A stretch of 64,000 nt of DNA, taken from the NCBI RefSeq assembly GCF_057098645.1, contig NZ_CM169472.1. One strand, given 5' to 3'. Positions 5,439 to 6,720 of this stretch are shown piece after piece. Every line of letters begins with the position of its first letter. Within the stretch, counting starts at the first letter, position 1. The position numbers and the translations under genes were made by a program. The notes beneath the pieces are model-generated. The model had not been told where the DNA came from, made no database searches, and was given only the letters and a program-made list of their open reading frames with translations.

Positions 5439-5764
5439 TATTTTTTCCAGAGGCGGTCGAACTCCGCCTTCGCAAAATAAGCGGAAGCCTGGCGAAGGAT
5501 ATCGTTACTGCGGCGCAGTTCACGATTTTCACGTTCCAGCTCTTTCAGACGCTGACGTTCAGCGGTGGTGAGTCCACCATCACCACTCCCGGTATCCCGC
5601 TCATGCTGGCGAACCCAGACACGCAGAGTCTCCGGCGTACAGCCAATCTTTGGGGCAATGGAACAAATTGCCGCCCACTGTGAGTCATATTCATCCTGAC
5701 TTTCCAGAACCATACGAATCGCCCGCTGACGGACTTCGGGGGAAAAACGAGTATTTTTAGTCAT
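5438..5764 (-). CDS. IS3-family transposase OrfA (HTH)
   Basis: 108-aa [25 protein letters not shown]..., typical IS629/IS1203 OrfA. Confidence 0.85.
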
Positions 5765-5874
5765 CCTGTTTACCTCTTTCTCAGGGAGTTTAGTCTCCAG
5801 GATTTCCGGGGCGGTTCACACCTGTTTCATTAACCTCATTTCGCCCACAAAAATCTCTTGCTATCGCCATTGGC

Positions 5875-6720
5875 GTGCTTGCCGTGGTTGTGCTGCCATT
5901 TCTCTCGTATTACACCGTTAATGAAGGTGAACGCGGCATTTTGCTGCGCTACGGAAAAATCGTAAAAGTTGCCGAGCCGGGTCTGGGTTTTAAGATCCCG
6001 TTTATGGAAAGCGTGGAGAAAATTTCCACGCGTAATCAGGCTGTGGTCTATCAGGGATTACAGGCCTACAGCCGCGACCAGCAACCGGCACAAATGACAG
6101 TATCAGTCAGCTTCCACATTAAACCTTCAGAAGCAGGCGCGGTTTATACCACCTACAACACCATTGAAGCATTAAAAGATCGTCTGATTGTCCGTCAGTT
6201 GCCAACTCAACTGGAGAACGTTTTCGGCCAATATACCGCCATCAGCGCTGTACAGGATCGTACAAAACTGGTTCAGGATCTGCAAAATGCCATGCGCAAA
6301 GCCGTTGTTGGGCCAGTGGTAATTGACGGGGTCCAGATTGAAAATATTGATTTTTCTGACGCTTATGAAAAGTCGATTGAAGACCGAATGAAAGCAGAAG
6401 TCGCCATTGCCACGCGTAAGCAAAATCTGGAAACAGAGAAAATCCAGGCGCAAATAGCGGTAACTCAGGCCCAGGCAGAAGCAGACAGTAAACTGGCGGC
6501 AGCCAAAGCAGAAGCGGAAACTATTCGCGTAAGAGGCGCGGCAGAGGCTGAAACTATTCGTTTAAAAAGTGCGGCTGAAGCAGAAGCAATCCGCCTGCGC
6601 GGTGAAGCTCTGCGGGATAATCCCGGACTTGTAGCCCTCACCACTGCCGAACGTTGGGACGGTAAACTGCCCGATACCATGATCCCCGGCAGCACAGTTC
6701 CGTTTATCTCTACTAAGTAA
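5875..6720 (+). CDS. SPFH/band-7 (prohibitin/HflC-like) domain protein, 5' end apparently disrupted by the IS insertion
   Basis: 281-aa ORF with SPFH core and Ala/Glu-rich coiled-coil tail; annotated start is GTG, and the reading frame stays open upstream to the IS end at 5818. Confidence 0.6.
   Translation: MLAVVVLPFLSYYTVNEGERGILLRYGKIVKVAEPGLGFKIPFMESVEKISTRNQAVVYQGLQAYSRDQQPAQMTVSVSFHIKPSEAGAVYTTYNTIEALKDRLIVRQLPTQLENVFGQYTAISAVQDRTKLVQDLQNAMRKAVVGPVVIDGVQIENIDFSDAYEKSIEDRMKAEVAIATRKQNLETEKIQAQIAVTQAQAEADSKLAAAKAEAETIRVRGAAEAETIRLKSAAEAEAIRLRGEALRDNPGLVALTTAERWDGKLPDTMIPGSTVPFISTK

Follow-up and report, generated by a model that had tools for sequence, protein, structure and literature searches.

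In the window (the whole stretch of 64,000 nt from contig NZ_CM169472.1 that was analysed here), an accessory, non-essential gene of the SPFH (prohibitin) membrane-scaffold family that lies between cmtB and tktA has received an IS629-type element at codons 3/4, and the resulting SPFH::IS629 allele is very probably a pseudogene, null or nearly so. We reach this view because the native ATG is diverted into the IS, the first start codon that remains ahead of the rest of the gene (GTG 5875) lies mid-helix with neither a Shine-Dalgarno sequence nor a detectable promoter, and the promoter expected at the IRL end of the element reads inward. The insertion was a simple cut-and-paste event with nothing missing from the genome i.e. 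the start signals of the SPFH gene have been displaced by 1.3 kb, not lost.

Insertion site and reconstruction of the gene

The features on which the analysis draws are listed in Table 1. The IS629 copy is bracketed by two copies of the trinucleotide CAC, a target duplication that the transposition would have generated, and its length of 3 bp is within the size expected of IS629, which makes target duplications of 3-4 bp (PMC3271280). When positions 4509-5821 were excised in silico, ATG AAA GCA C was joined to CT GTT TCA and a 909-nt ORF encoding 302 aa was restored. The insertion into the SPFH gene therefore amounts to 1313 nt placed after CDS nt 10, and no more than the first three residues (M-K-A) are cut off from the remainder. 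The sequence left after excision aligned without a break to the uninterrupted locus of O145:H28 strain RM12761, with 100% identity over 1500 nt, and the same 100% match over the 1500-nt cmtB-tktA interval was found in O145:H28 strain RM13516 and several other genomes. The CDS start annotated by RefSeq in RM12761 corresponds exactly to window position 4499, and the product given at that locus is the 302-aa form of a 'prohibitin family protein' (WP_000646940.1).

These results bear directly on a claim of the earlier note, which had the IS removing the original start codon and promoter of the gene. A deletion accompanying the insertion is indeed what positions 5764-6720 suggest when viewed alone, where an open frame has no visible start or promoter upstream of it. 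However, the ATG, the Shine-Dalgarno sequence AAGGAAG and the AT-rich region upstream of them are all retained at 4127-4508, on the far side of IS629. Because the CAC/CAC duplication matches and the excision product equals, base for base, the O145:H28 locus that lacks the IS, nothing was deleted; that part of the note does not stand, and a loss of the start signals has next to no likelihood.

Table 1. Features of the interrupted SPFH locus (window coordinates; CDS, coding sequence of the SPFH gene)
Feature	Position	Strand	Remarks
Native Shine-Dalgarno AAGGAAG	4486-4492	+	6 nt before ATG 4499
SPFH CDS, 5' fragment	4499-4508	+	ATG AAA GCA C, codons 1-3 plus 1 nt
Chimeric 56-aa ORF	4499-4669	+	native ATG into IS629 right end, TGA 4667-4669
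Target-site duplication CAC, left copy	4506-4508	+	last 3 nt of the 5' SPFH fragment
IS629 isoform (IS3 family)	4509-5818	-	1310 bp; defined by its ends and terminal repeats
IS629 ends	4509 (IRR); 5818 (IRL)		IRL is orfA-proximal and faces the 3' SPFH fragment
IS629 imperfect terminal inverted repeats	4509-4549 and 5778-5818		arms of 41 nt, 76% complementary
IS629 orfB	5438..4551	-	295 aa; HTH_21 and rve (DDE integrase core), rve E = 1.6e-27
ALIL pseudoknot, programmed -1 frameshift signal of orfA/orfB	5367-5483	-	Rfam RF01497, 120.9 bits (gathering score 50)
IS629 orfA	5764..5438	-	108 aa; HTH_Tnp_1
First in-frame stop (TAG) upstream of the 3' SPFH fragment	5791-5793	+	inside the IS, 26-28 nt from its terminus
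Target-site duplication CAC, right copy	5819-5821	+	directly after IS629
SPFH/Band_7 CDS, 3' fragment	5822-6720	+	CDS nt 11-909, stop TAA 6718-6720
Three tandem 33-nt units	6508-6606	+	11-aa A/E-rich C-terminal repeats AEAETIRVRGA, AEAETIRLKSA, AEAEAIRLRGE
GC-rich hairpin GGGCCGCTTTCGCGGCCC	6724-6745; copy at 6898-6919		just past the SPFH stop; copy adjoining the tktA stop

The inserted element and its second copy

The earlier note placed an IS at the 5' end of the SPFH gene, and this was borne out: an IS3-family element ends at 5818, with orfA starting at 5764 on the minus strand. Both of its ends begin with the terminal repeat TGAACCGCCCCGG, which gives the element 5'-TG...CA-3' termini. This 13-mer occurs four times in the window against 0.12 occurrences expected, which is not attributable to chance, and the two further occurrences are the ends of a second IS629 copy at 49797-51106. 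The orfB product scored 315 bits against NCBIfam NF033516 (transpos_IS3), for which the cut-off is 160. Over all 1310 nt the element was 97.7% identical to one of phage BP-4795 (AJ556162) that carries the annotation 'IS629 OrfA/OrfB', its best full-length match in 5426 complete E. coli genomes was 98.7% identical, and the published sub-types of IS629 are 4-5% apart (PMC3271280). On its sequence, the element is therefore an IS629 isoform distinct from the full-length copies in these genomes. Strains of O103:H2, O45:H2 and O145-like type carry the copies closest to it, on plasmids as well as chromosomes. Since the ORFs, the inverted repeats and the frameshift signal are all intact, the copy at 4509-5818 looks transposition-competent.

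The insertion shares its 1310-bp element, the -1 frameshift between orfA and orfB and a target duplication of 3-4 bp with the IS629 insertion polymorphisms of O157:H7 (PMC3271280) and, as in other cases of inactivation by IS629 in EHEC and related E. coli, a host gene is disrupted and the polymorphism is strain-specific. It differs from those EHEC cases (PMC3271280) in its target, which is here the accessory SPFH gene between cmtB and tktA.

The second IS629-family copy is inverted relative to the first and differs from it at 44 of 1310 positions (96.6% identity). The differences fall into two clusters, at positions 13-534 and 807-1039, and are absent from the stretch 535-806 between them, and the isoform at 4509-5818 may accordingly be of mosaic origin. 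No matching target duplication was found around the second copy, the flanks of which are CAT and TTT. It lies in an island, following fecD/fecE-like genes and an IS911-like remnant (~49715-49745), and a 489-aa ORF (50922-52391) begins within its right end and runs out into a truncated YfjI-family-like gene. We considered an inversion between the two inverted copies and rejected it for the first copy, because the flanks of that copy form a matching duplication and are colinear with the uninterrupted genomes.

The SPFH protein and expression of the interrupted allele

The restored 302-aa protein matched Pfam Band_7 (PF01145) over residues 35-210 with 111.6 bits (cut-off 23.6). Its Kyte-Doolittle maximum lies at residues 15-33, and mean values of at least 2.0 were obtained in the 19-residue windows starting at residues 13-18. 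Beyond IS629 the first canonical start is GTG 5875, which opens an ORF of 281 aa (5875-6720). The frame upstream of this GTG is open through the IS terminus as far as the in-frame TAG, with no ATG, GTG or TTG in frame between the two (5794-5874), and codons 5821-5874 encode PVSLTSFRPQKSLAIAIG i.e. native residues 4-21, including the first third of the hydrophobic anchor. The earlier note was thus right that the frame is open from the GTG back to the end of the IS, and right that the residues encoded there belong to the native N-terminal membrane anchor.

We aligned 16 homologues, from E. coli, Shigella, E. albertii, Kluyvera, Klebsiella, Kosakonia, Erwinia, Mixta, Salmonella, Testudinibacter and Pseudomonas. 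All 16 reach 20-35 residues upstream of the motif YTVNEGERG, each with a hydrophobic stretch in that region, and GTG 5875 must therefore correspond to Val22, midway along the one transmembrane helix, at the N-terminus. The N-terminus MKAP is common to the homologues of E. coli, Shigella and E. albertii, and the 21 codons upstream of the GTG are conserved at the protein level in these and in Kluyvera. By the earlier note, homologues starting at or after GTG 5875 would have shown the gene to be intact; as none of those aligned does so, the gene is really disrupted. The N-terminal anchor that precedes the SPFH domain in the restored protein is incomplete in the product of GTG 5875, which would retain ~12 hydrophobic residues and lack K2, R11 and K14 together with 7 of the ~19 anchor residues. 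The calculated energy of the duplex with the anti-Shine-Dalgarno sequence was -5.4 kcal/mol at ATG 4499 and -1.5 kcal/mol at GTG 5875, and no Shine-Dalgarno sequence precedes any of the three in-frame GTG codons at 5875, 5884 and 5890 (-1.5 to -2.2 kcal/mol).

It might be argued that GTG 5875 is itself the native start, in which case the gene would be intact and IS629 would lie only in the 5' untranslated region and change its regulation; gene callers did pick the 281-aa GTG-start product on some contigs. However, the contigs with this product that we inspected (L006, L008 and L009) each carry a start-codon loss or a nonsense mutation at the 5' end of the gene. The conservation of the upstream codons, the hydrophobic anchor upstream of the core in all homologues, the strong Shine-Dalgarno sequence at ATG 4499 with none at GTG 5875 and the annotation of the 302-aa form by RefSeq likewise count against an internal native start, which we regard as highly improbable.

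On the reading that the gene is disrupted, the native ATG, with its Shine-Dalgarno sequence and promoter region, would now drive only the 56-aa chimeric peptide, which ends in the IS and is not on record elsewhere in the gene-position index, and the remaining 299 codons would be left without a start codon before GTG 5875. An ORF colinear with the orthologues from start to stop is absent from the interrupted allele. A consensus scan of 4100-7000 detected no sigma-70-like site on the plus strand, and an outward promoter at the IS629 end was rejected as a candidate on this basis, although the scan is weak evidence because the native promoter upstream of ATG 4499 was also undetected. The promoter at the IRL (orfA-proximal) end of IS3-family elements reads inward, and in the 4509-5818 copy it would point away from the SPFH gene.

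The alternative is that the 3' fragment is still expressed, through read-through or from an outward promoter in the IS that went unrecognised, and that initiation at GTG 5875, 5884 or 5890 yields a truncated SPFH protein with half an anchor and reduced or altered function. The frame is open through the IS629 terminus and offers three in-frame GTG codons within 5875-5890, and read-through of the antisense strand from the native promoter could occur, the only plus-strand terminator-like site inside IS629 being a weak 5-bp hairpin (4518-4530). In addition, the sequence at the junction contains the hexamer TTCACA (5815-5820), which matches the -35 consensus at five of six positions, and in strain C325 PGAP calls an ORF fused from IS to gene a complete protein. 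However, inspection by eye found no usable, correctly spaced -10 element for this hexamer, in agreement with the plus-strand scan, and the GTG codons are poorly placed for initiation by the duplex energies given above. A truncated product would also be without the positively charged N-terminal residues and part of an anchor that all aligned homologues keep in full. Low-level expression of such an anchor-defective protein, the main rival, is therefore unlikely, and under the favoured interpretation, a pseudogene, both expression and function of the SPFH allele would be lost. The neighbouring genes should be unaffected, as cmtB is divergent and tktA convergent.

With regard to the protein family, K-12 has been described with four SPFH genes, those of HflC/HflK, QmcA and YqiK (PMC10434171), and the solved HflK/C and QmcA assemblies consist of N-terminally anchored membrane proteins (PMC10434171). 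HflK/C and QmcA are the nearest structural relatives of the SPFH protein studied here which, like HflC/HflK, QmcA and YqiK, has a Band_7 domain behind one N-terminal transmembrane segment and a coiled-coil-like A/E-rich C-terminus. It scored below the equivalog cut-offs for both hflC (TIGR01932, 60.5 vs 134.4 bits) and hflK (TIGR01933, 37.4 vs 159.4 bits), and is a distant paralogue of HflC, HflK, QmcA and prohibitin and not HflC or HflK itself. In contrast to hflK and hflC, which are paired in an operon, the gene is monocistronic and unpaired, and unlike the K-12 set it is accessory, being present in ~34% of genomes and absent from K-12. Because K-12 is described with four SPFH genes, this gene is a fifth, strain-variable SPFH paralogue of E. 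coli. No study of its function was found in the literature searched, and a role in a defence system was dismissed when no PADLOC family matched at E <= 0.01. Among homologues, the number of 11-aa repeats near the C-terminus differs by entire units, with one unit less in most genera and two less in a protein of E. albertii, which points to slippage or recombination within the coiled-coil region. Many 'partial' database proteins stop within these repeats (e.g. P0034, with 759 members), probably as a result of assembly breaks.

Distribution, other disrupted alleles and significance

The 5' region of the SPFH gene was found in 1824 of 5426 complete E. coli genomes (~34%), including ST131 and other B2 strains, and over the 298 nt of this region it is uninterrupted in 1822 of the 1824 carriers, leaving two that are interrupted (~0.1%). 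The uninterrupted locus of RM12761 contains the single SPFH gene, with cmtB divergent and tkt convergent, and has no paired SPFH or NfeD gene. In K-12 MG1655 the cmtB-tktA spacer is 313 bp and holds neither the SPFH gene nor an IS, which upholds the earlier note's statement that both are extra material relative to K-12. Homology of K-12 to the window is limited to the first ~78 bp past cmtB (window 4127-4205) and the tktA end, and ~235 bp of unrelated AT-rich sequence occupies the place of the SPFH gene.

Downstream of the gene, a 38-nt direct repeat (6708-6745 and 6882-6919, 82% identical) contains the GGGCCGCTTTCGCGGCCC hairpin, and its two copies flank a REP-like cluster between the SPFH and tktA stops. 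A match to the Rfam ES036 (CssrF) sRNA within this cluster (6791-6833, minus strand; 53.5 bits, gathering score 37.6) most likely reflects REP sequence and not a dedicated sRNA gene. The spacing between the SPFH stop and tktA was about 45 nt in L005, 220 nt in L003 and 394 nt in L004, a variation that recombination between the two repeat copies, adding or removing the REP cluster, could account for.

When 25 kb of the window were compared, the closest complete genomes were those of O145:H28 strains RM13516 and RM12761 (99.7% identity, 80% coverage), in both of which the SPFH gene is intact. A Shigella origin of the window, which the unusual IS isoform had brought into consideration, was rejected on this comparison. 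No match covering at least 80% of window positions 4127-6939 i.e. the interrupted allele was found in the 5426 complete E. coli genomes, and a 30-nt sequence spanning the junction had no exact match in GTDB representative genomes or JGI metagenome contigs; 'unique' here means not seen in the collections searched, from which the source genome itself is evidently absent. As the junction was not found elsewhere and the closest genomes have the gene intact, the insertion looks recent and strain-specific.

Strain C325 (NZ_CP124819) is one of the two complete genomes in which the gene is interrupted. As in the window, IS629 lies in the anchor-coding region of the same SPFH gene, and the flanks are 100% identical. 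However, the C325 insertion (4191-5500 of the locus examined) follows the base equivalent to 5882, which is 61 nt further into the CDS, and the element is in the opposite orientation to the copy at 4509-5818 and has TGC as its target duplication. Its sequence, moreover, is that of the second copy in the window (49797-51106), with which it is identical, and differs from that of the copy at 4509-5818. The two insertions are independent events. In C325 an ORF that begins in the right end of the IS is fused to the SPFH gene, and PGAP lists the fusion as a complete 'prohibitin family protein' of 299 aa (WP_052915431.1). This entry is probably an artefact of annotation that has propagated through RefSeq, and it shows that automated pipelines do not in every case recognise alleles of this type as inactive.

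Further disrupted alleles came from a look-up of the 281-aa product, a sample that is biased to the first 63 nt of the CDS. Draft or metagenome contigs starting with an IS1 end at CDS nt ~3, ~6, ~10-11 and ~60 (L003, L004/L011, L005, L007 and L010) place IS1 at at least four distinct positions; three of the insertions are at nt ~10-11, within 1-2 nt of the IS629 site in the window. Point knock-outs of the 5' end were also found, namely ATG>ATA in L006 and TCA>TAA in L008 and L009. All of these alleles resemble that in the window in that the native start is separated or destroyed while the 281-aa GTG-start ORF is left intact; they differ from it in the element or the type of mutation. The 281-aa product consequently failed as a marker of the IS629 allele, as it is also called on alleles with start loss, nonsense mutations or IS1 insertions. 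These alleles show that inactivation of the SPFH gene is recurrent and has occurred independently in different strains.

The IS629 insertions of the window and C325 and the IS1 insertions all fall within CDS nt 3-71. This could be taken to mean that the first ~70 nt are a preferred landing site for IS elements or that loss of the gene has been repeatedly selected or, as a variant, that an anchor-less SPFH protein with altered activity is still made from the interrupted allele. We do not claim a hot spot, because the look-up was biased to the first 63 nt and disruption of the 5' end is rare (2/1824), and we consider explanations of this kind quite unlikely.

In mechanism, the SPFH::IS629 allele adds one more case to a well-known and ordinary process, insertional pseudogenisation by a known IS, and it matters little outside annotation and strain typing. 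For annotation, the 281-aa GTG-start CDS should be labelled a 3' pseudogene fragment in place of an intact prohibitin-family protein, and the fragment at 4499-4508 is part of the same gene as the 3' SPFH fragment. For typing, the insertion can be treated like other strain-specific IS629 polymorphisms by which EHEC-related lineages are typed. Natural knock-outs such as SPFH::IS629 are, in addition, potential ready-made mutants for studying the gene.
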